From assembly GCA_001189215.1 (NCBI GenBank), contig LFCR01000004.1, positions 95,391 through 159,390 on the forward strand: a stretch of DNA of 64,000 bases, read 5' to 3'. Positions within the stretch are counted from its first letter, which is position 1, and each line of letters opens with the position of its first letter. This DNA is from Parcubacteria bacterium C7867-008 (lineage in GTDB: Bacteria; Patescibacteriota; Minisyncoccia; Phycocordibacterales; Phycocordibacteraceae). Below, one piece after another: positions 1,786 to 47,296 of the stretch. The position numbers and the translations under genes are program-made. The notes under the pieces are model-generated. The model was not told the DNA's origin. It ran no database searches and was given only the letters and a program-made list of their open reading frames with translations.

Positions 1786-1818
1786 ACATTTGATATAAAT
1801 GTATCATTATGATTAGAG

Positions 1819-1945: not shown

Positions 1946-2560
1946 ATGCCTTTTCTGATATCAACCCTGGTGGGTCTTATGGTTTTGCCAGCGGGTATAG
2001 CAGGTCCGATTCCTACTAATGCAACAGTAGCGACTACCACGGTAGCAGCTCCTACAGCACCGGTAAGTTTCAAGCTTGTAACCCCTGGAACGAAGGAAGC
2101 GGAAACGCCCTTCACGACCAAGCTCACCGCATATAACGCCGTGCCTTCACAAACTGATGGTAATCCCTTTGTGACGGCAAGCGGCTCGTTCTCAAACCCT
2201 GAAGTTGTTGCTGCACGTTCTGGCGACCTCGCGAAGGATCTTCCTTTCGGAACGATCATCTCGATTGAACGCTCTGCTGCTGACACTCCTGCTTGTAACT
2301 ACAGCACGGTGTCTCATCAGATCGGATATCGTGTTATCGCGGACTCCATGAATGCACGCATCACGAACACGGTCGACGTTCTTCTCGATGAGAATGACAC
2401 GGTCGTGGTCAACGGAAGGACGGTTAATCCAGGCATTGCGCTTGGTATCTGTGGACAGGTAACGGTGCGTGTAGTCGGCCATATTGGCGTCAAGGATATT
2501 CCTAAGACCCAGGCTGAACTCGCGTCATACGTTACTCCGTCTGCACTTGCAACCCGATAA
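1946..2560 (+). CDS. secreted/anchored 3D-domain-like protein (cell-wall associated)
   Basis: N-terminal hydrophobic segment, Thr/Ala/Pro-rich linker, C-terminal region resembling 3D (MltA-like) domains with conserved Asp residues (DTPACNY, DVLLDEND). Confidence 0.45.
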   Translation: MPFLISTLVGLMVLPAGIAGPIPTNATVATTTVAAPTAPVSFKLVTPGTKEAETPFTTKLTAYNAVPSQTDGNPFVTASGSFSNPEVVAARSGDLAKDLPFGTIISIERSAADTPACNYSTVSHQIGYRVIADSMNARITNTVDVLLDENDTVVVNGRTVNPGIALGICGQVTVRVVGHIGVKDIPKTQAELASYVTPSALATR

Positions 2561-2576
2561 TTTCACGAAACGAAAT

Positions 2577-2616
2577 AACACACACTCGGCAGAGATGCCG
2601 GGCGTGTGTTGTTTTA
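2577..2616 (+). terminator. intrinsic terminator (imperfect GC hairpin plus T-run)
   Basis: AACACACACTCGGCA..GCCGGGCGTGTGTTGTTTTAT immediately after the stop of the 3D-domain gene. Confidence 0.4.
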
Positions 2617-2646
2617 TATATGTAGCTTCATGAAGCGTAGTAAGGA

Positions 2647-3933: not shown

Positions 3934-3950
3934 AGTATTCTAGACAGAAT

Positions 3951-4391
3951 ATGGCTACAAGAAGGAAATACATTCCGGGCGACTTTGTGCTTACACCTAA
4001 GCGTTCAAGTGCAGGTATTGGATTATTTGCAGGACAAGATATTGCAAAGAATGAATGCGTTATTGAATACGTGGGACGAGAGGTGCCTGAAGCAGAACAA
4101 TATACCAACAACAGTCGTTACCTCTTTGGTATAGGTAGCAAACGTATGGTGGATGGGAAACCTAAGATCAATAAGGCAGGGTATATCAATCACTCTTGTG
4201 CACCGAACTGCGAACCAGTGATCCACAAAGGCCGTATCTTCATCTTCTCGATAAAGCCAATCAAAGTGGGTGATGAACTCACTTATGACTACGGGGCGGA
4301 ATACTTTAACGACATCATCCTTGGAGACGGAGGCTGCAAGTGTGCAAAGTGTGCCGTTACCGGAAAAGGTCAGAAGAAACGACGAGACTAG
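3951..4391 (+). CDS. SET-domain protein (putative protein-lysine methyltransferase)
   Basis: NHSCAPNC and ELTYDYG SET motifs, plus a C-terminal Cys cluster CKCAKC (post-SET). Confidence 0.75.
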   Translation: MATRRKYIPGDFVLTPKRSSAGIGLFAGQDIAKNECVIEYVGREVPEAEQYTNNSRYLFGIGSKRMVDGKPKINKAGYINHSCAPNCEPVIHKGRIFIFSIKPIKVGDELTYDYGAEYFNDIILGDGGCKCAKCAVTGKGQKKRRD

Positions 4392-5278
4392 TCGAACAGA
4401 GAGGCGAGATATCCGTTGATCTCCCGTTGATCAAGGTCATAAAAGAACTTCCCATCATCATGAAGTTTGGTCGCAAGGTCTATTCCAACGAAACGCCAAT
4501 GCCATGGTTCAAACTGATAGTATCCGTTTGATTTTGGATAAGAGAGTATGAATCCATACTTGTATGCGTTCTTGTTGAGCCATGCATATGCTTCAGTCTT
4601 CTCAAATCCACTGAAGGTTCCCCCTACAGACTTGGTGGTGAGGTCGAGTGCTGTACCAAGCTGATGCTCGGAATACCCCTGATCCGCTGAGAAGGCATTA
4701 GCAGAGCCTGCACCGTAGGTAATCTTATAACTCGCCTTTAAAGCCGCCTGAGTGCCAAATGAGCGGTATGCAGAGGCAATGAGGATGTCTATGTCATCAT
4801 CTTTTGCGCCTTCAAGGAGATCTTCTAGATGATTCCTGATTTCAGAATGTATTTCAAAGTTCCTGCTCGGCTCAAATAAGTACTCCGAATCGATAGGAGA
4901 CAGCGCAGAAGGGATGTAGTTCTCATTGAGGAAGTACACTTTGGAGTATTTGGCGAGAAGCTGTGGATCCGTCTGTGCAAGCTTGTTTAACTTCCCAACC
5001 GTACTACCAAGACTTCGTATCTGAGAATCAAACTGATCATTCTTCTGCTTCTCACTTGTGAAGGCATCTTGGAGGGAATTGCGATCATCGGTAACCTGAA
5101 CGAGAGACTTCTGTAGAGAAAGAGAGCGTTCTGTGCTGGAAGCAAGTTCAGCCTGAGTCGCCACTAACTTTGTGTGCTCCTGATAGTACAAGTACGCACC
5201 GGTACCAACTCCTACGAGAACAGCTCCGCATAGGGCAATAATGGCGATCCGGGCCGGAGTCATGTCTGTATAGTACAC
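4388..5278 (-). CDS. peptidase M15 (VanY-like D-Ala-D-Ala carboxypeptidase) with N-terminal TM anchor and coiled coil
   Basis: SEHQLGTALDL zinc-binding motif typical of M15B/VanY; N-terminal hydrophobic helix. Confidence 0.75.
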   Translation of the reverse strand: MYYTDMTPARIAIIALCGAVLVGVGTGAYLYYQEHTKLVATQAELASSTERSLSLQKSLVQVTDDRNSLQDAFTSEKQKNDQFDSQIRSLGSTVGKLNKLAQTDPQLLAKYSKVYFLNENYIPSALSPIDSEYLFEPSRNFEIHSEIRNHLEDLLEGAKDDDIDILIASAYRSFGTQAALKASYKITYGAGSANAFSADQGYSEHQLGTALDLTTKSVGGTFSGFEKTEAYAWLNKNAYKYGFILSYPKSNGYYQFEPWHWRFVGIDLATKLHDDGKFFYDLDQREINGYLASLFD

Positions 5279-34614: not shown

Positions 34615-35991
34615 ATGAACCCATCGGATCTTCCGTTGATGAAGTTTGTTGTTAAGCAACGCAATAAACTTTCGAGTAAAGGACACTATATTGATTGGGA
34701 ACCAGTCGCTTGGACGTTTGCGATTATAAACGTTCTCTTTCTATTTCTTGCGCCCTTTCAGGCATTACGTAACTTTGAATTCCTTCTGTTCTTTGCGCCA
34801 CTCTGGCTTCCACTTCTCACTATCTACGCTGCAGCGAATCGCGTTGTGCAGTATCGTCGTGCCAAGTTCTTAGCAAAGCAGAAGTACGTACTTCTTGAAC
34901 TACGTCTGCCACGAGAAACTAAGAAGACACCTCTTGCTATGGAGCTGTTCTTCTCAAACATGCACTTTGGTCCCGGTGAATCCACTAACTACAAAGTCTA
35001 CAAACTTGGAAACATTCGCCCGTGGTGGTCTGTTGAAATTGTCTCGCTCGGAGGACAGGTTCATTTCTATATATGGACGCGTGAAGCGCATCGTCGCGGT
35101 ATTGAAAGCTATCTGTATTCTCAGTATCCAGACATGGAAATCATTGAGGCGGAAGACTACAGCCTTATCACCGACCCATCTGATGATGAGCACAAACTCT
35201 TTGGTGAGGAGTTTATAAAATCTATTCCTGATGAAAAGGGGCAGCCAGATCCTTATCCAATAAAGACATACATTGAGTATGGACTTGATAAGGCAGGTAC
35301 TAAGCCGGAAGAACAGATTGATCCTCTTGCACAGGTGATCGAACTCCTTGGCTCTCTTGGACCAAAGGAACAGTTCTGGATACAAATCATGTTCCGTATA
35401 ACAAAGAAGGAAAAGTATAATGGGGAGAAGGACTGGAAAAAAGCTGGGCAAGAAGAGATCGCAAAAATACGTGAGGCAACAAGACAAAAAAGCTACTACA
35501 TTGATCCCGCAACAGGAAAGAAGGTGGAGACCGATGGTTTCCCGAATCCAACCAAAGGACAGCTTGAGACAATCGCAGACATTGAACGCAATATTAATAA
35601 GCCTGGCTTTGATGTTGGTATTCGTACCATTTATTCAGGCCCTAAAGATTCGTATCAGGGATTCATGTCTAGCTTTGTGCTTGCGCTATGGAAGCCATTC
35701 GCAAATGAAACTGGTGCGTCGCTTAAGCAACTAGGGGGATACTCTGCGGGCTTCAATGACTATCCATGGGAAGACCCGAAAGGTCTTGCGCATGACTTCG
35801 TTGAGAAGAAGATTGTGAAGCTCTATCGCAGGCGTGCCTTTTTCAATCAACCATACCAAGGTCCATGGTCCATTATGAGCAGCGAAGAGCTCGCAACACT
35901 CTTCCATATCCCATCAAGTACCATCAACACACCTGGCCTCCCACGTATACAGTCCACCACGAGGGGTGCTCCTACCAATCTTCCTGTGTAG
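34615..35991 (+). CDS. membrane hypothetical protein
   Basis: Two N-terminal TM helices, large soluble domain. Confidence 0.45.
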   Translation: MNPSDLPLMKFVVKQRNKLSSKGHYIDWEPVAWTFAIINVLFLFLAPFQALRNFEFLLFFAPLWLPLLTIYAAANRVVQYRRAKFLAKQKYVLLELRLPRETKKTPLAMELFFSNMHFGPGESTNYKVYKLGNIRPWWSVEIVSLGGQVHFYIWTREAHRRGIESYLYSQYPDMEIIEAEDYSLITDPSDDEHKLFGEEFIKSIPDEKGQPDPYPIKTYIEYGLDKAGTKPEEQIDPLAQVIELLGSLGPKEQFWIQIMFRITKKEKYNGEKDWKKAGQEEIAKIREATRQKSYYIDPATGKKVETDGFPNPTKGQLETIADIERNINKPGFDVGIRTIYSGPKDSYQGFMSSFVLALWKPFANETGASLKQLGGYSAGFNDYPWEDPKGLAHDFVEKKIVKLYRRRAFFNQPYQGPWSIMSSEELATLFHIPSSTINTPGLPRIQSTTRGAPTNLPV

Positions 35992-37009
35992 CATGAGTGT
36001 GCCTAAACAATTTCACCTCCGTACCGTGCTGCTTCGCGCACAGATACAGTCCCTATGGGTGCGGTTCCGTAAAGCCTATGTACTCACACTTGTTGCGTTG
36101 TTCGTCGTTGTGTTTATTCCACTATCAATACTCTTCGTTCCTCCATACCACTTTCCTAAAGGAGAGCTGATCTCTATACCGGCAGACAGCACCAGTGAAG
36201 AGATTGCCGATGAGCTAGCTGATCAACATGTTATACGCAGTGCTGCACAGTTTCGTATCTACACACGTCTAACAGGTGACGATCGTACCCTACAATCCGG
36301 TATCTATGTATTCGATCATGCACTTGGATTAGTGAGTGTTGCGCATCGCATAGCAAATGGAGATCATGGAATTGAAGAGTCTCGTGTCACACTCACAGAG
36401 GGTATGACAAACAAAGACATGGCACGCACTATTGCAGCGGGTGTACCTGGCTTTGATACAAAAGCATTCTTAGAACAAGCATCGACCAGTGAAGGGTACT
36501 TGTTCCCAGACACGTACTTCATTCTTCCCGGTACCACACCAGAAGACATGGTCCTTAGACTACGTACCCAGTTTGATACCAAGATACTAACTATTCAGAA
36601 AGAGGTTGATGCGTCAAAGATGTCTCTGAACAATTTGGTGATCCTTGCATCGATATTGGAACGAGAAGCACAAGGCATTGAAGATATGCGTATGGTGTCT
36701 GGCATTCTCAACAACCGTCTTCGTATCGACATGCCCCTACAAGTCGATGCGGTATTTGGCTATGTGCATGGAGAGAATGGGTACACCCCAACTGCAGCAG
36801 ATCTCGAGAGCGACTCTCCATACAACACGTACCGAGTGAAGGGTCTGCCCCCAACACCTATTGCTAATCCCGGCTTGGATGCGTTAAAGGCTGCGGCAAC
36901 TCCTAAAACTTCTACTTATTTGTATTACCTAACAGGGAAGGACGGTGAGATGCATTATGCGCGAACGTTTGAAGAGCATAAGCGCAATAGGGAGCTGTAT
37001 TTAAATTAG
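35966..37009 (+). CDS. mltG: endolytic murein transglycosylase MltG (YceG family)
   Basis: TM anchor; LILASILEREAQ and NTYRVKGLPPTPIANPG YceG signature. Confidence 0.8.
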   Translation: MLLPIFLCSMSVPKQFHLRTVLLRAQIQSLWVRFRKAYVLTLVALFVVVFIPLSILFVPPYHFPKGELISIPADSTSEEIADELADQHVIRSAAQFRIYTRLTGDDRTLQSGIYVFDHALGLVSVAHRIANGDHGIEESRVTLTEGMTNKDMARTIAAGVPGFDTKAFLEQASTSEGYLFPDTYFILPGTTPEDMVLRLRTQFDTKILTIQKEVDASKMSLNNLVILASILEREAQGIEDMRMVSGILNNRLRIDMPLQVDAVFGYVHGENGYTPTAADLESDSPYNTYRVKGLPPTPIANPGLDALKAAATPKTSTYLYYLTGKDGEMHYARTFEEHKRNRELYLN

Positions 37010-37010
37010 G

Positions 37011-37037
37011 TTCGATCCCTAGTCTCCCAGCAATGCT
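37011..37037 (+). repeat. degenerate boundary repeat R0 (GTTCGATCCCTAGTCTCCCAGCAATGC)
   Basis: Immediately after the mltG TAG stop; matches the consensus at GGTTC...TCCCAGC with internal deletion and substitutions. Confidence 0.35.
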
Positions 37038-37092
37038 TCCGTAATATACAAAGAGAAAAGCCTACTCACGATTCCTCGTTTTCGGCTTTGTC

Positions 37093-37464
37093 TCACGGTA
37101 TCCCGTCCTGATTCATCAGGTCGGTAAGACTCATGGACTTGTACGCGTAGCACCAGCTGCCGCGACCCGTGGCGACATCATACGCGATGATGATGCCGAA
37201 CGGATTTTCTTCCTGCATCTCCGTATCGGGAGCAAGGGAAGCAAGGATGAAGAACTGGTCGGGGTTGCGCGTCGAGAAGAGACCGCTCACGCGTGTCTCC
37301 CACATCGCTACTGGATACTCCTGTTCGTAGTTCTCGCGACTTGAGTAGAACTTGAGAATCTTGTCGCGATTGATGAAATAGGCGTCGAGCAGTTCAATCC
37401 GAGAAGGACCGACTGCCAGTTTGTGTGAGCGACGTAGGTGCTCTACCGCTGTTATTCGAGGCAT
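37093..37464 (-). CDS. cassette ORF, hypothetical protein
   Basis: 123-aa ORF between R0 and R1. Confidence 0.4.
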   Translation of the reverse strand: MPRITAVEHLRRSHKLAVGPSRIELLDAYFINRDKILKFYSSRENYEQEYPVAMWETRVSGLFSTRNPDQFFILASLAPDTEMQEENPFGIIIAYDVATGRGSWCYAYKSMSLTDLMNQDGIP

Positions 37465-37523
37465 GTCGCCCTCCGTTTCCTGGATAAATAATAGTATTAA
37501 TAATAAGACTTGTCAAATATAGA

Positions 37524-37551
37524 GGTTCCAACATCGTCCCAGACTGCCAGC
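37524..37551 (+). repeat. cassette boundary repeat R1
   Basis: GGTTCCAACATCGTCCCAGACTGCCAGC, exact consensus. Confidence 0.9.
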
Positions 37552-37613
37552 AAAAGAAAGACCGCCCCGCTGATTTCTCAGCAGAGCGGCTCATGCAGAT
37601 AGATGGAGGCAAT

Positions 37614-38144
37614 TCAGCCTTCGTCCGGGTATCTCATGACAAGACGCGTGCCACGCTGGACTAGGACGTCTTTCTTAAATGGAACTGCGCCAATAATCCA
37701 TCCTTCTTTGGGCGCGTACATCTGCGATGGGCGATCCGGATTGTACCAGCGTCCTTGCACCATGGCAGTTTCCCCTTCTTTCGGCTGCATCACGAAGCCA
37801 TTTGCCCATCCGTTCATGAGCAGCGCTGCGGGATGCCGTGCATGGTACCTAAGAAGCTCCCACACATGAGCGAACTTGAGACCGAATGCTGGATGCAATT
37901 CCTTCATCGGGAACGGCCGGCGAACGGTCCATATTCCTGCGAGGATTGGAGGAACATTGATTTCCGGGTCGCATTGCTCGAACAGTTCTGACGCTTCAGC
38001 GCGCACGTCTGCGATTTCAGGTTCGCCTGAGACCGGAAAACCGCGATAGAAATGGCTTGCCGGTATGAAGTGCTCGCATCCTGCCAAGGCGACAGGGTCG
38101 TTCTCTAGACGTAGACAGTCAGTAATTTCACCTGAGAGCTCCAT
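37614..38144 (-). CDS. cassette ORF, GC-rich hypothetical protein
   Basis: 176-aa ORF followed (minus strand) by a hairpin plus T-run, then R1. Confidence 0.45.
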   Translation of the reverse strand: MELSGEITDCLRLENDPVALAGCEHFIPASHFYRGFPVSGEPEIADVRAEASELFEQCDPEINVPPILAGIWTVRRPFPMKELHPAFGLKFAHVWELLRYHARHPAALLMNGWANGFVMQPKEGETAMVQGRWYNPDRPSQMYAPKEGWIIGAVPFKKDVLVQRGTRLVMRYPDEG

Positions 38145-38203
38145 GTGACATTCACCTCGTTGCTTTTATGGGTCTGGACAGAACCCTAACACAATTGCAT
38201 AAA

Positions 38204-38231
38204 GGTTCCAACATCGTCCCAGACTGCCAGC
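38204..38231 (+). repeat. cassette boundary repeat R2
   Basis: Exact consensus, preceded by GGTCTGGACAGAACCCTAACACAATTGCATAAA (shared with the R10 upstream region). Confidence 0.9.
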
Positions 38232-38246
38232 TATTTTTGATACACT

Positions 38247-38675
38247 GTGTCCATGACTGAAAAACAGAAGGTAGTTGTCTATGTCGTTAAAGACGGAAAG
38301 CTTCTCGTTTTCCGGCACACTGATTTCTCATACGAAGAAGTAGGAATTCAAGTACCAGCTGGAACAATTAAGGAAGGAGAAGATCCAGAATCCGCTGCAC
38401 TACGCGAACTGCACGAGGAAACAGGCCGCGACGGTTTCAGGATTGTTGAAAAGCTTGGAGTGGAAACGTACCACAAGATGCCCGAGAAGCCTGAAACACA
38501 TGTCAGGCACTTCTTCCTGGCCGAATCGATAACCTCTCATCCTGAGCGATGGTTAAGCCAGGAGCTTCATGACGGGGAGCAGGAACCTACAAACTTCGAA
38601 TGCTTCTGGATCCCGTTAGACCGGGGTCATATCCTAGAATCTGGACTCGGAGCATTGTTGCATAAGGTCGTATAG
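38247..38675 (+). CDS. cassette-encoded Nudix hydrolase
   Basis: Nudix box GTIKEGEDPESAALRELHEETGR (GX5EX7REUXEEXGU). Its stop codon TAG overlaps the first G of R3. Confidence 0.8.
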   Translation: MSMTEKQKVVVYVVKDGKLLVFRHTDFSYEEVGIQVPAGTIKEGEDPESAALRELHEETGRDGFRIVEKLGVETYHKMPEKPETHVRHFFLAESITSHPERWLSQELHDGEQEPTNFECFWIPLDRGHILESGLGALLHKVV

Positions 38676-38702
38676 GTTCCAACATCGTCCCACACAGCCA
38701 AC
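38675..38702 (+). repeat. cassette boundary repeat R3 (3' half diverged)
   Basis: GGTTCCAACATCGTCCCACACAGCCAAC. Confidence 0.7.
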
Positions 38703-38718
38703 AATATTTCCGCATATA

Positions 38719-38747
38719 TTGACTTATTTACATATTAGTGCTAATGT
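38719..38747 (+). promoter_or_regulatory. sigma70-like promoter (TTGACT-17-TAATGT) inside a non-coding cassette
   Basis: Read directly; followed about 80 nt later by the hairpin GGCCCCGCAGACTTTATGTCATGCGGGGC plus TTTTGATT, with no credible ORF between them. Confidence 0.35.
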
Positions 38748-38856
38748 ATTTCCAGACGAGAAAATTCTCACTTTATAGCGTATTTGCCTTTCCCATTACC
38801 AAATGGCAAGGCTTGGCCCCGCAGACTTTATGTCATGCGGGGCTTTTGATTAAAAA

Positions 38857-38884
38857 AGTTCCAACATCGTCCCAGACTGCCAGC
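38857..38884 (+). repeat. cassette boundary repeat R4
   Basis: AGTTCCAACATCGTCCCAGACTGCCAGC (1 mismatch). Confidence 0.85.
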
Positions 38885-38950
38885 AAAAACGAAACCCCGC
38901 GACCAAATGGTGCGGGGTTCCCGTTAAGGCATTTCGGGTAAGCCTACGCT

Positions 38951-39448
38951 TCAGAGGTGACTGAACTTCGGGTAGTGGCTGTCGAGTTCCTGGCGATCCT
39001 CCTGTTGCTCGTCAGTCAGGTTGCCGCGGCCGAACCGAGAGGTAGGTAGGTTGAACTTTTTCACGATCGCTTCACAGATCTCGAAGTCGAGCCTGGTGTA
39101 GCACTGTTGAGGGCCGAGATCGAAGTCTTCCGGGATAACACCGAGATACTTCAGGGCGGTCGCCATGTCGTAGCCGTAGTGCGTCGTCCACTCGAAGTAG
39201 CTGGAGAGGCCGTTGGAGACGACAGCCCAGGCAGCGATACGCTGGTACTGGAGATCCATGCCGCATAGGACGGCGGCAACGAAGCGATCATTCCAGTAGC
39301 ACTGGTGCTGGTGCTCGTTGTGGCCCGTCCAGACGCGCTGAGCACTGAGGCGGGTGAGCGGGTTCTCAAGGTGAGCGCCCGGCTCCTTCACGCACTTCGC
39401 GACATGCGCAAAGGCTTCTTTATCGGTCAGTTCCACAGCCTGGGTCAT
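38951..39448 (-). CDS. cassette ORF, GC-rich hypothetical protein
   Basis: 165-aa ORF; minus-strand terminator AACCCCGCACCATTTGGTCGCGGGGTTTCGTTTTT precedes R4. Confidence 0.45.
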   Translation of the reverse strand: MTQAVELTDKEAFAHVAKCVKEPGAHLENPLTRLSAQRVWTGHNEHQHQCYWNDRFVAAVLCGMDLQYQRIAAWAVVSNGLSSYFEWTTHYGYDMATALKYLGVIPEDFDLGPQQCYTRLDFEICEAIVKKFNLPTSRFGRGNLTDEQQEDRQELDSHYPKFSHL

Positions 39449-39520
39449 TTGCAGTCCCGCGTCTGAGCTCTCTGAGCTGGTTGAAATGTACGCTAGACCA
39501 AGTAGGTCCTTGCTGATACC

Positions 39521-39548
39521 TTTATATCATATTTACATATTTAGTCAA
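39521..39548 (-). promoter_or_regulatory. sigma70-like promoter (TTGACT-16-TATAAA) for cassette ORF 38951-39448
   Basis: Reverse complement of AGTCAA 39543-39548 and TTTATA 39521-39526. Confidence 0.4.
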
Positions 39549-39557
39549 GCATAAAAA

Positions 39558-39585
39558 GGTTCCAACATCGTCCCAGACTGCCAGC
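39558..39585 (+). repeat. cassette boundary repeat R5
   Basis: Exact consensus. Confidence 0.9.
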
Positions 39586-39591
39586 AATTGA

Positions 39592-39858
39592 TCAAAGTCT
39601 CGAAACCGCGCAATACCCATCACCATAGACATTCACAATAATGCTTCCACTCTTACTTCTGCAGCTCTCCCTCGCTGCATTAAGTTCAGTCCCTGACATA
39701 TTCCTAGAGAAAACAGGAGTTTTGTATACTACGTACCAGTCTGTCCCATACCCGATCACATCACCAAACTGAAAAGACGTTATTCGGTAAGGAGAAAGTA
39801 GGTATAGTCCGGCAAGAACGCCCAAGCCAATAAATATATAGCGAGCGTACTTTTTCAT
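39592..39858 (-). CDS. cassette ORF, small secreted/membrane protein (AT-rich)
   Basis: 88 aa, N-terminal hydrophobic helix. Confidence 0.4.
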   Translation of the reverse strand: MKKYARYIFIGLGVLAGLYLLSPYRITSFQFGDVIGYGTDWYVVYKTPVFSRNMSGTELNAARESCRSKSGSIIVNVYGDGYCAVSRL

Positions 39859-39882
39859 GCATTAAGTCTAGCACCCATAAAG

Positions 39883-39910
39883 GTTCCAACATCGTCCCAG
39901 ACTGCCAGCA
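39883..39910 (+). repeat. cassette boundary repeat R6
   Basis: Exact consensus. Confidence 0.9.
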
Positions 39911-39972
39911 AACAGAAAACCCGCTCAGCGAAGCTAAACGAGCTTCTGCTGGAACGGGTCCAGGGCGATTGA

Positions 39973-40170
39973 TCAGTTCGGCACGAACTTCACGTCGGCG
40001 GAGACTTGACCGATAGGCGGCGTCCAACCGAGCTGCGGGTGGAAGTGGGCAGTCTGGATACCCACGAGGAAGGCCAGAGCCGCGCCAGCGACCATGATGC
40101 AGGTCAGAAAGCGGCGTTCGAAGGTGTTAGGCGAAGGTGCGATGCGCGTGCGCGCCATGTGCGTTCTCAA
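39973..40170 (-). CDS. cassette ORF, small GC-rich membrane protein
   Basis: 65 aa with a TM helix. Confidence 0.3.
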   Translation of the reverse strand: MRTHMARTRIAPSPNTFERRFLTCIMVAGAALAFLVGIQTAHFHPQLGWTPPIGQVSADVKFVPN

Positions 40171-40224
40171 TGCTGTGCGACCCTGCGGATCGGCTCATTC
40201 CTGCACGATGCTGGAACTGATAGG

Positions 40225-40253
40225 TTAATACAACTATTTAAATATTCTGTCAA
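40225..40253 (-). promoter_or_regulatory. sigma70-like promoter (TTGACA-17-TATTAA) for cassette ORF 39973-40170
   Basis: Reverse complement of TGTCAA 40248-40253 and TTAATA 40225-40230. Confidence 0.4.
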
Positions 40254-40264
40254 TTAAGGACAAA

Positions 40265-40292
40265 GGTTCCAACATCGTCCCAGACTGCCAGC
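40265..40292 (+). repeat. cassette boundary repeat R7
   Basis: Exact consensus. Confidence 0.9.
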
Positions 40293-40374
40293 AGCTAACT
40301 ATCAATATATAAAAGAAACCGCCCCACTACTGAACGCTGTGAGGCGTCTCTTGTAGTGAGGCGGTGTGCCCCGA

Positions 40375-40833
40375 TCAAACCGAGATCGGAATGGTGATGT
40401 CGAGGATCTCGAGCGCGAACTCCCAATCCTTGGTTTCAGCCACATCCGAGCGCGTACGGGCCCGTCGGTGATCAGCCATCCCAGGCCAGTCGAGCATGCG
40501 TCCCATCTGGGTGACCCAGTCGTACCGATCACCGTGGTGGTGGCCGTCGGTGCAGATCACGCAGGGAATGCCCTTTGCGTTTGCCAACGACATGACCGCC
40601 ACACCGCAGGGCTCGAGGATATTGTTGTCGACGCCATTAGAGTTGCCGCTGCGACCCTGCGGGAAGAAAAGGTCGGTGATCACGTGCGTGATGCCGTACT
40701 GCTCGCTCTTGAGCAGGGCCTGTTCGGCGAAGTCCAGGTTCTTCACATGGATGAACTCGATGCCGGCACGCTGCAGGATGTTTATCGCATCGTCGGCATG
40801 ACGTGCAGTGTCTTCAACGAGCAGAATCTTCAT
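40375..40833 (-). CDS. cassette ORF, stand-alone receiver(REC)-like domain protein, GC-rich
   Basis: MKILLVEDTARHADDAINILQ...ITHVITDLFFP CheY-like layout. Confidence 0.45.
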   Translation of the reverse strand: MKILLVEDTARHADDAINILQRAGIEFIHVKNLDFAEQALLKSEQYGITHVITDLFFPQGRSGNSNGVDNNILEPCGVAVMSLANAKGIPCVICTDGHHHGDRYDWVTQMGRMLDWPGMADHRRARTRSDVAETKDWEFALEILDITIPISV

Positions 40834-40871
40834 TGCTGGCCTCCTTGGCCTTGTTTCTGAATCCTAGGCTT

Positions 40872-40900
40872 ATATTACTACAGTATGTGTACTTTGTCAA
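40872..40900 (-). promoter_or_regulatory. sigma70-like promoter (TTGACA-17-TAATAT) for cassette ORF 40375-40833
   Basis: Reverse complement of TGTCAA 40895-40900 and ATATTA 40872-40877. Confidence 0.4.
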
Positions 40901-40907
40901 GTAAAAC

Positions 40908-40935
40908 GGTTCCAACATCGTCCCAGACGGCCAGC
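40908..40935 (+). repeat. cassette boundary repeat R8
   Basis: GGTTCCAACATCGTCCCAGACGGCCAGC (1 mismatch). Confidence 0.85.
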
Positions 40936-40953
40936 TATTATTTATAAAAGTTA

Positions 40954-41610
40954 TTGTGGCATAATGTTCATATGCCTGAAGGAATTAAAGATTGGAGAAG
41001 ACTTTTTGCCGAAGGAAGGAATTCAGACCCTGCACGTAAGGATGTTCCCGTTTCGCAAGAACCAGTGCTTGAGTCACGGACCAAAACAGAAGGTCATAGA
41101 GTGGAAAAAATTCCTCTCGAACCAACAGTGCTTTCACCGGTTCAGCTTACAAATACCAAATTCCTTGATAATCCTTCCAAGCGAAGACTTGTTGCTGGTG
41201 ACTTTAAAAGACTCATTCTTGATAAAGCACGTCCGGTAGTGCTACAGGATTCATTAACTTTAGAAAGATTTGATCTTTCTAAAGGAGACAAAGATAGAAA
41301 TATTGTTGCAGATGTTCCTGAAGAAGCTTTCTTTGCTGATGAAACGGAATTATATGCCCGTGTTGCACAACTCATATCTCTTGAAGAGAGCGGCTATTCA
41401 GGTATCCTCGCAACTGGTAGTTCGATGAATGTTTTTTATCTAAAAGGCAAGAAAACCGTAGTCATGGTGCATACTGCAATTTCCAACGCTACTCGCCAAC
41501 GAGTCTGGGTATCAGACGCTGATTCATTCGATGCGCCTGGACATCGTCCAGAAACTCGAGTCTTTTTAAAGAATATTGAATCAAAGGCACCAATTCCTGA
41601 TGAGACTTAG
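40954..41610 (+). CDS. cassette ORF, hypothetical protein (AT-rich)
   Basis: 218-aa ORF; an alternative start is the Met at 40972. Confidence 0.4.
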   Translation: MWHNVHMPEGIKDWRRLFAEGRNSDPARKDVPVSQEPVLESRTKTEGHRVEKIPLEPTVLSPVQLTNTKFLDNPSKRRLVAGDFKRLILDKARPVVLQDSLTLERFDLSKGDKDRNIVADVPEEAFFADETELYARVAQLISLEESGYSGILATGSSMNVFYLKGKKTVVMVHTAISNATRQRVWVSDADSFDAPGHRPETRVFLKNIESKAPIPDET

Positions 41611-41625
41611 AGATATTTCTAAAAA

Positions 41626-41653
41626 GGTTCCAACGTCGTCCCAAACTGCCAGC
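41626..41653 (+). repeat. cassette boundary repeat R9
   Basis: GGTTCCAACGTCGTCCCAAACTGCCAGC (2 mismatches). Confidence 0.85.
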
Positions 41654-41723
41654 AATAAAAGAAAGATCGCCTACAGGAAGCGACCTTCCGTAAGCGATTA
41701 TGGTTTCACTTTGTCTGTGAATC

Positions 41724-42059
41724 TCACAGCTCCTCGAACTTTGTGCTCACCCATTCGGGAGTTACCTCAATTGTTGCCCGTTCAAGAACTTTTGCAATGT
41801 CGGGCGCGGGCATGACCGACGTCGTACCACACTTTTCGCAGTCTCGGCGCTGCGCAAGAGACTGCACACACTCTTTAACCATGTCCACATGTGGCGTAGG
41901 TGGATGTCTTTCGAAAGATGAGTATCCCCAAGCGGTATTCTCGTGGCTGCAGCAAGGACACACGAGAACGGCATCGAAACCAAGGGCTCTATTTCCAAGG
42001 GGCCCGCGAGGCACGAACCTGTGCCCCTGGACCTTTGGTTCCCAGCTCTTTAAATACAT
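41724..42059 (-). CDS. cassette ORF, Cys-rich zinc-ribbon-like protein, GC-rich
   Basis: CPCCSHENTAWG ... CEKCGTT. Confidence 0.4.
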   Translation of the reverse strand: MYLKSWEPKVQGHRFVPRGPLGNRALGFDAVLVCPCCSHENTAWGYSSFERHPPTPHVDMVKECVQSLAQRRDCEKCGTTSVMPAPDIAKVLERATIEVTPEWVSTKFEEL

Positions 42060-42112
42060 GACGTGTTCCCTTCAATGGAGGTCTGGACAGAACCTACCAT
42101 AGATTGCATAAA

Positions 42113-42140
42113 GGTTCCAACGTCGTCCCAGCTGCCACCC
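42113..42140 (+). repeat. cassette boundary repeat R10 (3' end diverged)
   Basis: GGTTCCAACGTCGTCCCAGCTGCCACCC, preceded by GGTCTGGACAGAACCTACCATAGATTGCATAAA. Confidence 0.75.
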
Positions 42141-42158
42141 TTTTGATATAATTAACTC

Positions 42159-42548
42159 ATGCACAAAGACATTCGGACATATAATTCTGCGCTTACAAAA
42201 GAGGATAAGAAGATCTGTAACACCTTAGCAAACGAGATCGATGCAAGTCTGCCAGAAGCTGAGAGCAAAATATGGCACAGGAGCCCTGTGTGGTTCTTGG
42301 AAGGCAATCCCGTGGTTGGGTATGCAAAACGTAAAGATAACGTTCAACTCCTTTTCTGGAGTGGTCAATCATTTGAGGAAAAGTGCTTAGCACCCGAGGG
42401 AAGCTTCAAGGCGGCACAAGCTCGGTACATCAAAGCTTCCGAAATAGAGCTGAAGGATCTAAAACGTTGGTTAAAGAAAGCAAAATTGATCCAGTGGGAT
42501 TATAAGAATATTGTCAAAAGAAAAGGGAAGCTGGTCCGCATTACATAA
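42159..42548 (+). CDS. cassette ORF, hypothetical (DUF1801/YdhG-like)
   Basis: 129-aa ORF starting 19 nt after R10. Confidence 0.4.
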   Translation: MHKDIRTYNSALTKEDKKICNTLANEIDASLPEAESKIWHRSPVWFLEGNPVVGYAKRKDNVQLLFWSGQSFEEKCLAPEGSFKAAQARYIKASEIELKDLKRWLKKAKLIQWDYKNIVKRKGKLVRIT

Positions 42549-42551
42549 AAC

Positions 42552-42575
42552 TTCCAACAATTGTCATGGCGCTAT
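42552..42575 (+). repeat. degenerate boundary repeat (CTTCCAACAATTGTCATGGCGC)
   Basis: Shares TTCCAACA..GTC with the consensus; overlaps a TATAAT -10 element just before the next ORF. Confidence 0.3.
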
Positions 42576-42585
42576 AATTAAACGT

Positions 42586-42897
42586 ATGAAGCTTGAAACT
42601 TTCCGCGCAACACCATTGATAAAGCAGAAGTTTGTATTGGTACGCGTTTCTCAGTCTAACAAAGAACATTTGCTGCTTTGGGGTAATCCAGATATTGAGT
42701 GGCACATGCAGATCATTGAAGAGATAACTAATGCAGGTCATGAGATAAAAGATATCCTTGGCGGCGGATGGCTACTATCAAAGCCAGAAGATAGAGTAGT
42801 TTACATCTGGGGGAAGAGCGATCGTCTTGGGTTGGCACCGATTGAATTGGTTAGGGAAGTGCTTGGAGACAGCGTTGTTGAGAGTGAACCAGAATAA
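42586..42897 (+). CDS. hypothetical protein
   Basis: Start at the internal Met (MKLETFRATPL) of ORF 42511-42897. Confidence 0.35.
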   Translation: MKLETFRATPLIKQKFVLVRVSQSNKEHLLLWGNPDIEWHMQIIEEITNAGHEIKDILGGGWLLSKPEDRVVYIWGKSDRLGLAPIELVREVLGDSVVESEPE

Positions 42898-42898
42898 G

Positions 42899-42926
42899 GG
42901 TTTCAGCATCATGCCTGCAGAACACT
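42899..42926 (+). repeat. degenerate boundary repeat (GGTTTCAGCATCATGCCTGCAGAACAC)
   Basis: About 19/28 identity to the consensus. Confidence 0.3.
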
Positions 42927-42950
42927 ATTTATTCTTAGGTATATTATTTT

Positions 42951-43238
42951 ATGAATCCTAAGCTCTCAAAGACAGTTTCACTTCTCTTGATGCTCACACC
43001 AATAGCACTCTTAGCTACATATTTTGGTGTATCAGTGACAACAGCAATTCCAAATATTCCGTTGAAAGTTATTGGCATAGGGTATTTTGCTTTAAGCGTT
43101 CTGTTTTCGATAATAAACTACTTCCTTAATGGTTTGCGCACCTTGCTCATACACTGTGCCGTTATCGTGGCAGGTACCATAGGAGTAGTAGTGTTCTACG
43201 TGCTACTACTTTTCTGTATGTTTCCTCTTCCGCTCTAA
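42951..43238 (+). CDS. small membrane protein
   Basis: Three predicted TM helices. Confidence 0.35.
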   Translation: MNPKLSKTVSLLLMLTPIALLATYFGVSVTTAIPNIPLKVIGIGYFALSVLFSIINYFLNGLRTLLIHCAVIVAGTIGVVVFYVLLLFCMFPLPL

Positions 43239-43320
43239 TTAAAAGCTTGTGACTGCACCCAGCCGTAATATATTTAATATTCTTGATTAAATAAGCGCAG
43301 ACAGGTGCTACACTTTCTTC

Positions 43321-43602
43321 ATGAAAGCCTTAAGTATAGTCTCCTTGTTGATTAGTGTGGGTTTCTTTGCCTTTGCTTGGTACATAGCTCTAAACTCAAC
43401 AAACGGCGGATACACATGGGCGTATATAACAGCAGTGTTCATATGCCTTATTGGCGCAGGATTCTTAGGAACTGGAATCGCCTTGTATAGAACTAGGTTT
43501 ATGGCAAATTCAATGATTCCTCCACTTATATTTGTAGGAGTTCTCATATTTCTTGCTGGGTTTGTCTTTTTCTATATAAAACTTGCCGTTCCAGGCTTAT
43601 AA
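43321..43602 (+). CDS. small membrane protein
   Basis: Three predicted TM helices. Confidence 0.35.
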   Translation: MKALSIVSLLISVGFFAFAWYIALNSTNGGYTWAYITAVFICLIGAGFLGTGIALYRTRFMANSMIPPLIFVGVLIFLAGFVFFYIKLAVPGL

Positions 43603-44122
43603 AACAGATATGATTGCACGAATTCTCTTAGGTATCTGCTCCGTAATAAGTGTTCTGCTTTTTGTGATTATTGGATACGGCACTTCAAGTGAATGTTTAG
43701 TTGGTGACAATCCATTAGCTCAAATCCTTTTACTTCCACCACTCCTCATTCTTTGGTTTGGTTTATATTCGTCATTTAAAACCCCCACACTGCGACGTGC
43801 TGTATTCATTCTTCTTTTTGCATTATTCATCGCGTTCGTAACACTATATGGTTCAGGTACTTCAAGATGCAGTCCTAACGATAGTTCAAAGAAGGGCACT
43901 CTGCGAACTCTGCAAAAGGTGCTTTCAGAGTATTACGCTGACAACCACTCGTACCCTGAAACCCTTTCGGACTTCTCAGATTACATTGGTCCACGCACAG
44001 AAGCATCTGATATCAGGTACAGTCATACAAAAGACTCATACCAGATGTGCACTACCATTAAATACAAGTACTTCTACCACATACCACTAAATGCAGGGGA
44101 GGAGTATTGTCTAGGTTCGTAG
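43583..44122 (+). CDS. membrane-anchored hypothetical protein
   Basis: Two TM helices, then a soluble C-terminal domain. Confidence 0.4.
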   Translation: MPFQAYKTDMIARILLGICSVISVLLFVIIGYGTSSECLVGDNPLAQILLLPPLLILWFGLYSSFKTPTLRRAVFILLFALFIAFVTLYGSGTSRCSPNDSSKKGTLRTLQKVLSEYYADNHSYPETLSDFSDYIGPRTEASDIRYSHTKDSYQMCTTIKYKYFYHIPLNAGEEYCLGS

Positions 44123-44138
44123 ATGATACAGTAGAGGT

Positions 44139-44573
44139 ATGAAACCAGACGCATTCCTTAAGACTTATTTCTGGCCCACGAAGGTTCGTGTGTTGGTATT
44201 TATGGTGTTAAGTATCTATGTGACCTTAAGTACTATGTTCCTTGCCCCATTCATGAATGACGAGCAGCCAGAACGACCGCTAACCGTGCTGGAACAAGTA
44301 GGCATGGTTGCAACCTATCCTTCAATGATATTCAGCAAGCCATTCATCTATATCTCTGGGAACCTATTTACTCAGCAGGTTACCCTAAGCGACCTCATGC
44401 AACAGCCAGGCAGTACGGCACTTCCACTAACTCCTAACGCAACCATTGAGAGCAGCACTATCACACAAGCAAGTCCTTTTGGGTTTGCGCTTGGGGCCAT
44501 CCTTGAATCTCTATCACTGTATATACTTGCGTGTTTGATCTGTCTCCCGGTTAAAAAGAAGAAAACGGTGTAG
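44139..44573 (+). CDS. membrane hypothetical protein
   Basis: TM helices at the N- and C-termini. Confidence 0.35.
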   Translation: MKPDAFLKTYFWPTKVRVLVFMVLSIYVTLSTMFLAPFMNDEQPERPLTVLEQVGMVATYPSMIFSKPFIYISGNLFTQQVTLSDLMQQPGSTALPLTPNATIESSTITQASPFGFALGAILESLSLYILACLICLPVKKKKTV

Positions 44574-44584
44574 AAAGGAGAGGT

Positions 44585-45643
44585 TTGAGGTATGGTATCG
44601 CTATGGAATCCATAGCAAGTAAGAACGTATTTGTTGGACTATCCGGAGGAGTAGACTCCGCGGTTTCGGCTGCACTCTTACAAAACGCAGGAGCGCATGT
44701 CACAGGAGTGTTTATTAAAGGATGGTATCCCCCTGGTATGCCGTGTACTTGGGCAGAAGATCGGCGTGATGCGATGCGTGTCGCTGCACACCTAGGCGTT
44801 CCATTTCATACGCTTGATGCGTCCACAGAATACAAACAAGGAGTCATAGACTATCTCATCTCTGAGTACGCAGCGGGGAGAACACCAAACCCGGACATAA
44901 TGTGTAACAGGGAAGTTAAGTTTGGAGCGTTCTACCGCTTTGCGAAAGAACACAACGCAGACTTCATTGCCACCGGACACTACGCACAAACAAAAGATGG
45001 TCAACTTTTTCGAGGTATAGATCCATCAAAGGATCAGAGCTATTTCCTATGGGCAGTGCCAAAAGAAGCATTGAGTCAAACACTCTTTCCGGTTGGAGGC
45101 CTGCCGAAATCAGAAGTACGTGCTCTTGCAGAGAAATTCAATCTTCCTGTTGCGCAGAAGAAGGATAGTCAGGGAATTTGTTTCCTAGGATCTATTTCCG
45201 TTGATGAGTTCCTGCGCAATGAGCTGAAAACAGAAGAAGGTGATGTGCTTGATGAGACGGGACAAAAGATTGGCACACATGATGGCGCAGTTCTCCACAC
45301 ACTTGGTGAACGCATTACACCTCACGACGCGGAACAGGGTCCTTGGTATGTGGTCCGTAAAGATCTTGCAATAAATGTACTGGTGGTGAGACACGGATCT
45401 GCGGCATTTGAAACACCACCAGCAACGCTCACTCTACGAGACACTAACTGGTTTACTCCAGATGCCTTAGAGGGAACACTTGAAGCACAGTATCGGTATC
45501 ACGGTTCAGTTACTGCAGGTACGTACGATAAGAAGACCTCAACATTTACTCCAAGCGTACCGCTTCCAGAGCCCATTGCAGCTGGGCAGTCTCTTGTGTT
45601 GTATGTAGGGGATAGCTGTATTGGAGGTGGTATTATCGAGTAA
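44585..45643 (+). CDS. mnmA: tRNA-specific 2-thiouridylase MnmA
   Basis: PP-loop SGGVDSAV, catalytic Cys region, C-terminal barrel. Confidence 0.9.
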   Translation: MRYGIAMESIASKNVFVGLSGGVDSAVSAALLQNAGAHVTGVFIKGWYPPGMPCTWAEDRRDAMRVAAHLGVPFHTLDASTEYKQGVIDYLISEYAAGRTPNPDIMCNREVKFGAFYRFAKEHNADFIATGHYAQTKDGQLFRGIDPSKDQSYFLWAVPKEALSQTLFPVGGLPKSEVRALAEKFNLPVAQKKDSQGICFLGSISVDEFLRNELKTEEGDVLDETGQKIGTHDGAVLHTLGERITPHDAEQGPWYVVRKDLAINVLVVRHGSAAFETPPATLTLRDTNWFTPDALEGTLEAQYRYHGSVTAGTYDKKTSTFTPSVPLPEPIAAGQSLVLYVGDSCIGGGIIE

Positions 45644-46495: not shown

Positions 46496-47296
46496 ATGGC
46501 AGAATTTCGTAAGCAATATAATCCAAACCGAAGTTCAGACTGGAACTATGGCGGACCCAAATGGCGTCTCTCACGTTCAAAGATTGAGTTGTTTACCGAG
46601 TGTCCTCGTTGCTTCTATCTAGACAATAAACTGGGTACTGCACGTCCTCGTGGTCCTGCGTTTACCCTTAATATTGCGGTGGATGCACTTTTGAAGAAAG
46701 AGTTTGATGTGTACCGAATAGACGGCACCAAGCACCCGCTGATGGAGGCGTATGATATCAACGCTGTTCCGTTTAAGCACAAGAACATGAATACTTGGCG
46801 CGAGAACTTTGAGGGCGTTGAATTCAAACACAAAGAAACTGGCTTCACGATTTCAGGTGCAGTGGACGATATATGGGTTAATCCAGAAGGAGAACTTATT
46901 GTTGTGGACTACAAAGCAACTTCGAAAGAAGGAACAATCACTACACTCGCCGATTCTTCTTGGAACGAGCAGTATCAACGCCAAATGGGTGTCTATCAAT
47001 GGCTCCTTCGTAACAATGGATTCACGGTGTCTCCAACCGGATACTTTGTATATGCAAACGCAGGGAGTGACAAAGCAGCGTTTGATGGACAGCTTGAGTT
47101 TGAAGTAACGGTAGTGCCGTGTGAAGGAGATACCGCATGGATCGATGATGTTCTTCCAAAGATAAAAGATGCACTTGATAGCGAAGCACTACCGCCGGTG
47201 GGTGATGCCTGCGAGTTCTGCGTATACCGAGAAGCATCAGGGAAGAAACTTCAGGAGCTCTATAAGAAGAGTCTGCAGGTAAAGAAAGTGGGCTAA
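46496..47296 (+). CDS. PD-(D/E)XK nuclease family protein with Cys4 cluster (Cas4/RecB-nuclease-like)
   Basis: GAVDDIW ... VVDYKATS D-(D/E)XK motif; N-terminal CPRC plus C-terminal C...CEFC. Confidence 0.5.
   Translation: MAEFRKQYNPNRSSDWNYGGPKWRLSRSKIELFTECPRCFYLDNKLGTARPRGPAFTLNIAVDALLKKEFDVYRIDGTKHPLMEAYDINAVPFKHKNMNTWRENFEGVEFKHKETGFTISGAVDDIWVNPEGELIVVDYKATSKEGTITTLADSSWNEQYQRQMGVYQWLLRNNGFTVSPTGYFVYANAGSDKAAFDGQLEFEVTVVPCEGDTAWIDDVLPKIKDALDSEALPPVGDACEFCVYREASGKKLQELYKKSLQVKKVG

Follow-up and report, generated by a model that had tools for sequence, protein, structure and literature searches.

In a 64,000-nt window of the chromosome of Parcubacteria bacterium C7867-008 (contig LFCR01000004.1, positions 95,391 to 159,390; coordinates below are those of the window unless another locus is named), the interval between mltG and mnmA holds an array of small, mostly single-gene cassettes. 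Every cassette up to the distal end is followed by a copy of one short repeat, here called the P site, and the array is headed by a different motif, the B site, which mimics the 3' end of tRNA-Gln. We interpret this region as a tandem array of small mobile cassettes, built on the chromosome of a member of the Paceibacteria (Parcubacteria/OD1) by repeated conservative site-specific recombination, and give this reading a probability of roughly 0.6. The connection to tRNA-Gln, missed in the first-pass annotation of this DNA, is the key to the anatomy of the array.

The P site has a 28-mer core, GGTTCCAACATCGTCCCAGACTGCCAGC, within a conserved span of about 33 nt whose extended consensus is written A.AAAGGTTCCAACATCGTCCCAGACTGCCAGCAA. 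Ten copies, all on the plus strand and with a start-to-start spacing of 182-718 bp, lie between mltG and mnmA, as had been reported earlier; nine were recovered by a mismatch-tolerant search, and repeat finding added the tenth, at 42113, which carries a 1-nt deletion. Nine of the earlier positions held, and one was corrected from 39883 to 39882. The number of 28-mer matches expected under dinucleotide shuffles is 0. A profile built from 228 copies in other genomes and searched with nhmmer yielded exactly these ten copies (E <= 7e-7 each) and no eleventh in the whole 64 kb, the next best match having E = 0.67. Degenerate copies had also been proposed at both edges of the array. The one at 37011 is real and proved to be the tRNA-Gln 3'-end mimic rather than a P site, while those at 42552 and 42899, here placed at 42545 and 42894, retain only the left half of the repeat (17 of 21 and 17 of 22 matches). 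These two half copies score at the 99.9th percentile of the window background, neither being significant alone, and fall exactly on the stop codons of plus-strand open reading frames (ORFs), as true copies do. The conserved A-rich prefix of the P site, ATAAAGG, includes a TAA; plus-strand ORFs terminate on or just before this prefix and begin 20-50 nt past the preceding P site. On either strand, the consensus and the real copies fold with minimum free energies of 0 and -0.3 kcal/mol and are less structured than shuffled sequences, and we found no inverted repeats flanking the P sites, no self-complementarity and no dyad symmetry. The earlier remark that the repeat is not an obvious imperfect palindrome like attC was thus borne out by folding.

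The B site, TAGGTTCGATCCCTAGTCTCCCAGCAA, is composed of a perfect T-arm (TTAGG-TTCGATC-CCTAG), a 7-nt acceptor 3' strand, the G73 discriminator and CAA, and its symmetry, as read from the sequence, is limited to the 5-bp T-stem. It matches GTTCGATCCCTANTCTNCCAGC, the genuine tRNA-Gln(UUG) 3' terminus at other loci, with 0 mismatches, and in relatives 22-25 nt of it form the true 3' end of a tRNA-Gln(UUG) gene (63-64 bits with the Rfam tRNA model). The B and P sites have their 3' part in common, CC.AG.CT.CCAGCAA, over a shared length of only about 10-16 nt. The same B site lies on the stop codon of the mltG orthologues in three other species, at L078, L046 and L083 (L-numbers are the labels of loci in this analysis).

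Species-representative genomes were scanned with a 25-nt degenerate P pattern, and all counts of loci, arrays and cassettes given here refer to the matches listed in that scan. The P site occurs, mostly as arrays, in at least 116 loci of at least 69 genomes, with up to seven 8-kb blocks containing P sites in one genome. All of the genomes listed belong to Patescibacteria (Paceibacterota/Parcubacteria, together with metagenome-assembled genomes with coarser labels), and they are divergent, AlaRS being 74-89% and MltG 29-78% identical among them. No match to the P site was found in IMG/VR viral contigs, PLSDB plasmids or GenBank phages, and the literature searched contained no paper with the P sequence, or on cassette islands or tRNA-Gln islands in the candidate phyla radiation (CPR). 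Across 260 P copies, conservation is near-complete from -5 to +30 (about 35 nt) and absent in the flanks.

We defined 119 arrays and 243 cassettes. Cassettes have a median length of 522 bp, 95% of them being no longer than 1.2 kb; 71% contain one ORF of at least 70 aa and 17% contain none. Two or more co-oriented sites are present in 101 of the 119 arrays, and the sites bracket genes. The arrays are strictly polar: the 243 adjacent site pairs comprise 57 B-then-P, 183 P-then-P and a single P-then-B, and a B site comes first in 57 arrays, half of the remainder beginning at the edge of the fetched block. tRNA-Gln accounts for 27 of the 44 tRNAs in these loci (21 UUG, 6 CUG), and each of these 27 genes is co-oriented with the first P site and located 200-1100 bp upstream of it. 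Of the B sites that stand alone, 17 lie across the stop codon (TAG or TAA) of a housekeeping gene on their own strand. These anchor genes are found repeatedly in different species (M23 peptidase five times, MltG four times, AlaRS twice), indicating that the landing pads are old and conserved. Mismatches in the P site rise with its rank from B, from 1.38 at rank 1 to about 2.6 at ranks 3-4 (Spearman 0.25, p = 0.002), a trend that is only suggestive because the loci were selected for an exact match. The cargo is diverse: 235 cassette ORFs fall into 213 clusters, and 180 of them have no relative among the 1,241 ORFs examined.

The mltG-mnmA interval was compared in four species in which the flanks are the same, cl33-cl21-mltG on one side and mnmA-cl35-cl17 on the other. 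A single cassette is present in L083 and a pair of them in L046, against at least three in L078 and no fewer than ten in the window, with no cargo in common. The content of this orthologous locus is thus wholly different in the four species. Two distal cassettes of the window are each trailed by one of the decayed left halves of a P site (42545-42565 and 42894-42915). The four membrane-protein ORFs beyond them (42951-44573) have no counterpart between mltG and mnmA in L046 and L083; they probably represent old cassettes with decayed sites. A metagenome scan with MltG gave three distant relatives, without sites.

Cassettes are also re-used as modules. Eight pairs located in different genomes or at different anchors are 72-87% identical over their full length and drop to background identity (38-56%) beyond the bounding repeats; one example is a 597-bp cassette that is the first after an M23 peptidase gene in L088 and the first after an unrelated gene in L027. 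The site to the left of the paired cassettes varies independently of them, and one pair has a derived substitution in common in the site to the right. This suggests that what moves, as with the cassettes of integrons, is a gene plus the P site that follows it, and that exchange takes place near the 3' end of this site.

In the model that we favour, each cassette is a self-contained unit, usually of one gene and often with its own promoter and terminator, with a P site at its 3' boundary. The head of the array is a putative landing pad consisting of the last ~25 nt of tRNA-Gln, which belongs to a real gene in many relatives and is, here and at other conserved positions, a stand-alone tail on the stop codon of a housekeeping gene. 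The sequences show directly this anatomy, the polarity, the tie to tRNA-Gln, the turnover at orthologous loci and the re-use of cassettes; the circles, the point of crossover and the recombinase with its class belong to the proposed mechanism. A circular cassette with one P site would recombine with B or with a P site already in the array. We infer a crossover near CC.AG.CT.CCAGC/AA (the slash marks the exchange), which would leave B first and then one P after every cassette; it would also keep the tRNA-specific left arm of B in place, so that tRNA-Gln stays intact. New cassettes would enter preferentially near the B end, and distal sites would decay. The enzyme would act in trans and would most likely be a tyrosine recombinase, candidates being a family of small tRNA-targeting integrases associated with a sister repeat and a conserved XerA-type recombinase. 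The ~10-16 nt shared by B and P is too short for RecA-dependent exchange, and the B-P junctions therefore argue for a site-specific enzyme. Of two readings offered by the first-pass annotation, an undescribed cassette-capture system whose recombinase is encoded elsewhere fits the comparative data on conservation, polarity, turnover and cassette re-use, and an integron cassette array lacking its integrase (CALIN) does not fit the unstructured site. A more far-reaching version, to which we give slightly less than even odds, is that these arrays constitute an undescribed integron analogue of the Paceibacteria, with at least ten tRNA-Gln-mimic pads per genome served by one unlinked, clade-conserved recombinase. 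In that version the pads would be tRNA-Gln itself or tails fused to core-gene stops, the single-gene cassettes would carry a 33-nt unstructured site acting as double-stranded DNA, and the recombinase might be the XerA-type enzyme, a small integrase or another enzyme class.

The 64-kb window gave no sign of a tyrosine or serine recombinase, in agreement with the earlier annotation, as judged by motif regexes and by tblastn with Xer-type and small-integrase queries rather than by a full domain scan. Over ~900 kb of loci, such searches matched a single complete gene for a tyrosine recombinase, which lies in L011, and a fragment at the margin of L099. The stop codon of the L011 gene abuts the last P site. 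Its product is of XerA type (NF040815, 243.6 bits against a cut-off of 220) and falls below the integron-integrase model (TIGR02249, 126.7 bits against a cut-off of 265). The XerA-type gene lies in conserved synteny, rpsO-xer-xth-cca (L122-L135 neighbourhood), and is present in all array-bearing relatives examined; it is not among the genes of this window. The gap between xer and xth contains different small genes in each species examined, from none to three (for example NUDIX, N_methyl and Trans_reg_C), and a B site lies beside the xth start in L011, L127 and L130. Thus the xer-xth gap is itself a cassette hotspot, and the recombinase gene borders one hotspot among many. The gap between rpsO and xer is also variable (Band_7, tRNA_bind). 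All-against-all clustering of the 1,241 ORFs returned only housekeeping anchors as recurrent neighbour genes.

A sister repeat, GGTTCGAACATCCTCCCAGGTGCGGAGC, is present in another lineage as six to seven direct copies in L139 (94-7643; JGI 3300063180 contig Ga0558079_0017767). It agrees with the P site in 17 of the left 19 nt; the right, acceptor-like part differs and still ends in A-G-C, an ending that would be compatible with A72/G73, identity positions of tRNA-Gln. Within this array, the unit at 895-5231 encodes a small tyrosine integrase in truncated form, a fused Ddl (ddl) and an M15 (VanX-like) peptidase, and the integrase gene is convergent with the repeat, its stop codon lying 14 nt from the repeat 3' end. 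Full-length relatives of 186 aa, unusually short for tyrosine integrases, show the same geometry at the 3' ends of tRNA-Ile and tRNA-Met (P0127, P0128; L142, L144), where they occupy mini-islands of about 3 kb (L144 4002-6839 and L142 8833-10664). At either edge of the 2.8-kb island in L144 stands a 26-nt direct repeat that spans the tRNA from T-arm to 3' end and continues into CAA; the B site covers this same portion of its tRNA and likewise trails CAA. These islands resemble the P-site arrays in this attachment identity; their integrase genes point towards the attachment site, in convergent orientation, and begin within 14-30 nt of it, and a truncated member of the family lies in the L139 array. 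They differ in that each is a solitary island at tRNA-Met or tRNA-Ile that encodes an integrase of its own. The P-site loci, at least 116 in number, gave no tblastn match to the small integrase family. Integrase 3'-end remnants (TTTTGGGCAACC.GTGG.CAAC, encoding FGQPVGNQW) recur near the L144 and L142 mini-islands, which suggests repeated integrations there.

Several observations weigh against site-specific capture as we propose it. Motif searches and tblastn over the ~900 kb of loci linked no recombinase to any P-site array. The tie to the small integrases comes from one truncated gene in the lineage of the sister repeat, and that to the XerA-type enzyme is suggestive at most, because its gene is no better conserved than its neighbours. 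We observed no circular cassette, empty site or within-population polymorphism: in the sole comparison within one population, that of L132 and L133, the gene calls looked polymorphic but the DNA is identical. The trend of site decay with rank is weak and subject to ascertainment. The site has neither dyad nor hairpin, and its conservation lies nearly all on one side of the inferred crossover, which is unusual for the core sites of tyrosine or serine recombinases. Finally, the model gives no account of 25-nt tRNA-Gln tails positioned exactly on the stop codons of unrelated housekeeping genes; since the pads are common to several species, a few ancient events would suffice to place them.

Since one-sided, unstructured conservation is unusual for tyrosine recombinases, a nick-and-join mechanism is an alternative, in which the same array would be moved by a strand-specific HUH-type nickase (a relaxase, Rep or IS91-like protein) that recognises ~30 nt 5' of the nick, joins two nick sites and releases and re-inserts single-stranded cassette circles. 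We regard this as unlikely. It would suit the asymmetry of the site and the fact that all copies point in the same direction, co-oriented with the upstream genes. In addition, B and P both start with GGTTC, and GTTC is the target tetranucleotide of IS91, which is only a lead. On the other hand, tyrosine integrases classically target the 3' ends of tRNAs, one such integrase stands in canonical geometry in the sister-repeat array, and no HUH or Rep protein turned up, though no specific search for one was made.

A scheme without any dedicated recombinase is improbable as well. Here the repeats would be short homology anchors, perhaps uptake signals, for RecA-mediated swaps in naturally competent CPR cells, and selection at the level of the cassette would keep the anchors uniform. 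It agrees with the lack of a linked recombinase and with cassettes common to different species, and a repeat of 28-33 nt is near the minimum length for RecA pairing. The strict B-first polarity and the B-P junctions, with only 10-16 nt in common, make this model the weaker one, as it accounts for neither. Moreover, conservation ends sharply and without taper, homologous exchange would not easily bring about net insertion beside one site, the connection to tRNA-Gln would be a coincidence, and the copies are without exception direct repeats, an arrangement that uptake signals, being functional in both orientations, do not require.

We consider it very improbable that the repeat marks accessory genes without moving them, either as a regulatory or RNA-level element (a terminator, an insulator, an RNA-processing site of the tRNA-like punctuation type or a protein operator) or as a selfish repeat like repetitive extragenic palindromic (REP) sequences or miniature inverted-repeat transposable elements (MITEs). 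Its location directly after plus-strand stop codons, the T-arm hairpin of the B site and the presence of several loci per genome would be compatible with such a role. However, 81 of the 235 cassette ORFs face the other way, their own promoter and terminator lying against the repeats, so the P site is not a gene-oriented regulatory motif; it is also unstructured, and neither the repeats nor the ORF-less cassettes match an Rfam family. Occurrence of the 28-mer throughout the genome had been named as a sign of a generic repeat. It does occur at several loci per genome, in the form of gene-bracketing arrays of one orientation and never scattered singly in both orientations, and identity with REP or MITE elements was rejected for the same reasons and because the site is not palindromic. 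Neither turnover at orthologous loci nor homology that ends at the repeats would be accounted for by an element that stays in place.

A classical integron array minus its integrase, with the 28-mer as part of attC sites, is extremely unlikely: single-ORF cassettes separated by a conserved site, with variable cargo mostly of unknown function, are indeed found, but the site is a 28-33-nt sequence with no imperfect palindrome whereas attC sites measure 57-141 nt and, as imperfect palindromes, form a hairpin (R''-L''/L'-R'), many cassettes are inverted and have their own promoter, the first site is a tRNA tail and not an attI beside intI, the gene of a tyrosine recombinase with an IntI-specific insertion, and the sole array-adjacent recombinase fails the integron-integrase model; on attC structure this reading is refuted. 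Further identities considered for the repeat were rejected. A CRISPR array, with repeats of 25-40 nt, spacers of 25-50 nt and cas genes close by, would fit the repeat length, but the intervals are genes, the "spacers" being 154-690 bp long with ORFs and promoters, and the arrangement fails as a tandem repeat; a dif/Xer site was rejected for want of dif-like inverted arms in P or B; and a 5S or tmRNA fragment and an uptake sequence were likewise discarded.

Among known systems, sedentary chromosomal integrons such as the Vibrio superintegron with its VCR repeats are alike in their long unidirectional arrays of single genes mostly of unknown function, in a uniform 3' recombination site per cassette with a distinct first site (attI there, B here), in content that differs between relatives and in the decay of distal sites. 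They differ in having a folded attC of 60-140 nt, in contrast to the 33-nt unstructured site described here, and an attI beside intI, in contrast to a tRNA-Gln 3' end or its mimic with no integron integrase. Unlike chromosomal integrons, the present system has many arrays per genome at conserved positions, one third of its cassette ORFs are inverted, and several cassettes of the window have their own promoter or terminator. Of the features of integron cassettes, single-ORF units, the 3' site and turnover are found here, and co-orientation and the promoterless state are not. Tycheposons, the tRNA-seeded additive islands of Prochlorococcus, insert into the 3' part of particular tRNA genes; successive insertions are set apart by partial copies of the tRNA, and new insertions lie next to the tRNA while older ones are pushed distally and degenerate (bioRxiv 10.1101/2020.12.28.424599). 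The arrays share with them integration at tRNA 3' ends, the additive tandem layout and a streamlined genome otherwise without mobile elements. Insertion at a tRNA 3' end with flanking direct copies of a tRNA segment is likewise seen here, the following sites being a diverged version (P) with the 3' 10-16 nt in common. In contrast to tycheposons, which are multi-kb elements with their own integrase and replication genes, the units described here are of 0.2-1.2 kb and share a common non-tRNA P site, their landing pads are found also off tRNA genes, on housekeeping stop codons, and motif searches and tblastn found no integrase in any P-site cassette or flank. The array therefore falls outside both classes as defined, as attC, IntI and an element-borne integrase are all lacking. 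In its workings it resembles both a sedentary chromosomal integron and an additive island of the tycheposon type, with site-specific accumulation of cassettes at tRNA 3' ends.

In Xer-dependent modules (IMEX at dif, and the pdif modules of Acinetobacter plasmids), sites of ~28 nt bracket small modules and the host Xer recombinases act in trans; a dif-like site consists of two ~11-bp inverted Xer-binding arms around a 6-8-bp centre, and pdif modules alternate in orientation. The arrays are similar in their short bracketing sites, and the array genomes examined have the XerA-type recombinase, some arrays lying right beside its gene. They differ in that B and P lack two inverted 11-bp arms, in that the sites are direct rather than alternating, in the many loci per genome as opposed to one dif, and in the relationship to tRNA-Gln, which has no counterpart there.

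CPR bacteria (Patescibacteria) are host-dependent and have tiny genomes with few recognised mobile elements, and by which route they gain genes is an open question. The P site offers a concrete, testable mechanism of gene capture, and as one short sequence that marks hundreds of variable single-gene modules in at least 69 species, it is a search key for their accessory gene pool. If the platform is indeed clade-wide, it would be the main route of gene gain in these ultra-small symbionts. Should a recombinase be found, the system would represent a second, structurally different solution to the capture of many small genes, beside the folded attC of integrons, and its compact unstructured ~33-bp site and tRNA-tail pad might yield genetic tools for organisms that have few. 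Quite apart from cassette capture, it is unusual for a tRNA-Gln tail to stand alone, fused to the stop codon of a core gene.

Table 1. Coordinates of the cassette array and its flanks in the window.
Feature	Position	Strand	Details
mltG (YceG)	35966..37009	+	conserved anchor; PF02618 YceG; TAG stop 37007-37009 = first three B-site bases
B site	37007..37033	+	tRNA-Gln 3'-end mimic; proposed landing pad (attB/attI equivalent)
Cassette 1	37034..37518	-	ORF 37093-37464, 123 aa, no family match; promoter 37516-37488 (11/12 matches)
P site 1	37519..37553	+	core 37524-37551
Cassette 2	37554..38198	-	ORF 37614-38144, 176 aa, ORFan; terminator 37590-37561
P site 2	38199..38233	+	core 38204-38231
Cassette 3	38234..38669	+	Nudix hydrolase 38247-38675 (PF00293, E = 6e-15)
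P site 3	38670..38704	+	core 38675-38702; 3 mismatches
Cassette 4	38705..38851	+	no ORF; promoter-like TTGACT...TAATGT; strong GC hairpin then T-run (read from sequence)
P site 4	38852..38886	+	core 38857-38884
Cassette 5	38887..39552	-	ORF 38951-39448, 165 aa
P site 5	39553..39587	+	core 39558-39585
Cassette 6	39588..39876	-	ORF 39592-39858, 88 aa, N-terminal hydrophobic segment
P site 6	39877..39911	+	core 39882-39909
Cassette 7	39912..40259	-	ORF 39973-40170, 65 aa; terminator 39946-39916
P site 7	40260..40294	+	core 40265-40292
Cassette 8	40295..40902	-	ORF 40375-40833, 152 aa, receiver-like N-terminus unconfirmed; promoter 40900-40872 (10/12 matches); terminator 40336-40320
P site 8	40903..40937	+	core 40908-40935
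Cassette 9	40938..41620	+	ORF 40954-41610, 218 aa, ORFan
P site 9	41621..41655	+	core 41626-41653; 2 mismatches
Cassette 10	41656..42107	-	ORF 41724-42059, 111 aa, Cys-rich; terminator 41689-41661
P site 10	42108..42141	+	core 42113-42139; 1-nt deletion, degenerate 3' part, E = 7e-7
Two distal cassettes	42142..42915	+	DUF1801 (42159-42548); Ocnus-family protein ending 42897
Four consecutive small ORFs	42951..44573	+	predicted membrane proteins; no family match, no recognisable site
mnmA	44585..45643	+	conserved distal flank of hotspot

The intervals between the P sites of the window are 154-690 bp long, and each contains one ORF or, in a single case (38703-38856), none, as the earlier annotation had it (Table 1). 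This ORF-less interval of 154 nt, cassette 4, may be a small-RNA cassette, because a promoter-like TTGACT...TAATGT and a GC hairpin with a T-run can be read in it. In cassette 3, the Nudix stop codon (38673-38675) abuts the core of P site 3 within the conserved A-rich prefix, and an extended -10-like element, TGATACACT, follows directly after P site 2. As for the promoters and terminators that several cassettes had been said to carry, on the minus strand two strong sigma70-like promoters lie at the right-hand repeat and four terminator-like hairpins at the left-hand repeat of their cassettes, in numbers not above those in shuffled sequences. The alternation in GC content described before is present, cassettes ranging from 0.37 to 0.56, but this spread is no wider than that of the housekeeping ORFs of the window (0.42-0.62), and we rejected GC heterogeneity as evidence of foreign origin. 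Of the cargo listed previously, the Nudix hydrolase was confirmed, while the receiver domain reached only E = 0.6-0.95 and was not; DUF1801 and Ocnus were found in addition, and 7 of 10 cargo ORFs have no family match. PADLOC and NCBIfam scans of the cargo were uninformative, and an exact-protein look-up for the region returned the source contig only; the window also has a match in a JGI contig. For the 165-aa ORF of cassette 5, a search of 5.8 billion proteins yielded just two homologues, and one of these lies inside the sister-repeat array L139.

Some further observations concern individual loci. The first cassette after mltG (window 37050-37095) and the first after the M23 peptidase gene in L010 have in common a 79-nt stretch of 90% identity at the B-proximal end (terminator region) of the cassette, at these two different anchors. 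In L011 (3500-3780), a non-coding cassette of ~280 nt between B and P carries a minus-strand TTGACA promoter and a terminator, and matches no Rfam family at the gathering threshold. In L003 (6285-6593), a full tRNA-Gln gene is followed by two partial copies of ~52 nt, from the end of the D-arm to the 3' end, separated by 29 nt and by a masked N run; another integrase, one that uses a longer attachment site, might account for them, as might a fault in the assembly. The sole match of the B site in IMG/VR viral contigs is a phage-encoded tRNA whose 3' end is identical to it (L121 3630-3700; UViG_3300000881_000002), with no adjoining integrase; the genes around it are for a primase-helicase and a DNA methyltransferase-like protein. 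The window also encodes, at the second gene past mnmA, a PD-(D/E)XK nuclease (46496-47296; PF12705, Cas4/AddB-like) with a four-cysteine pattern; it keeps this place in several array-bearing genomes, which probably reflects synteny only.

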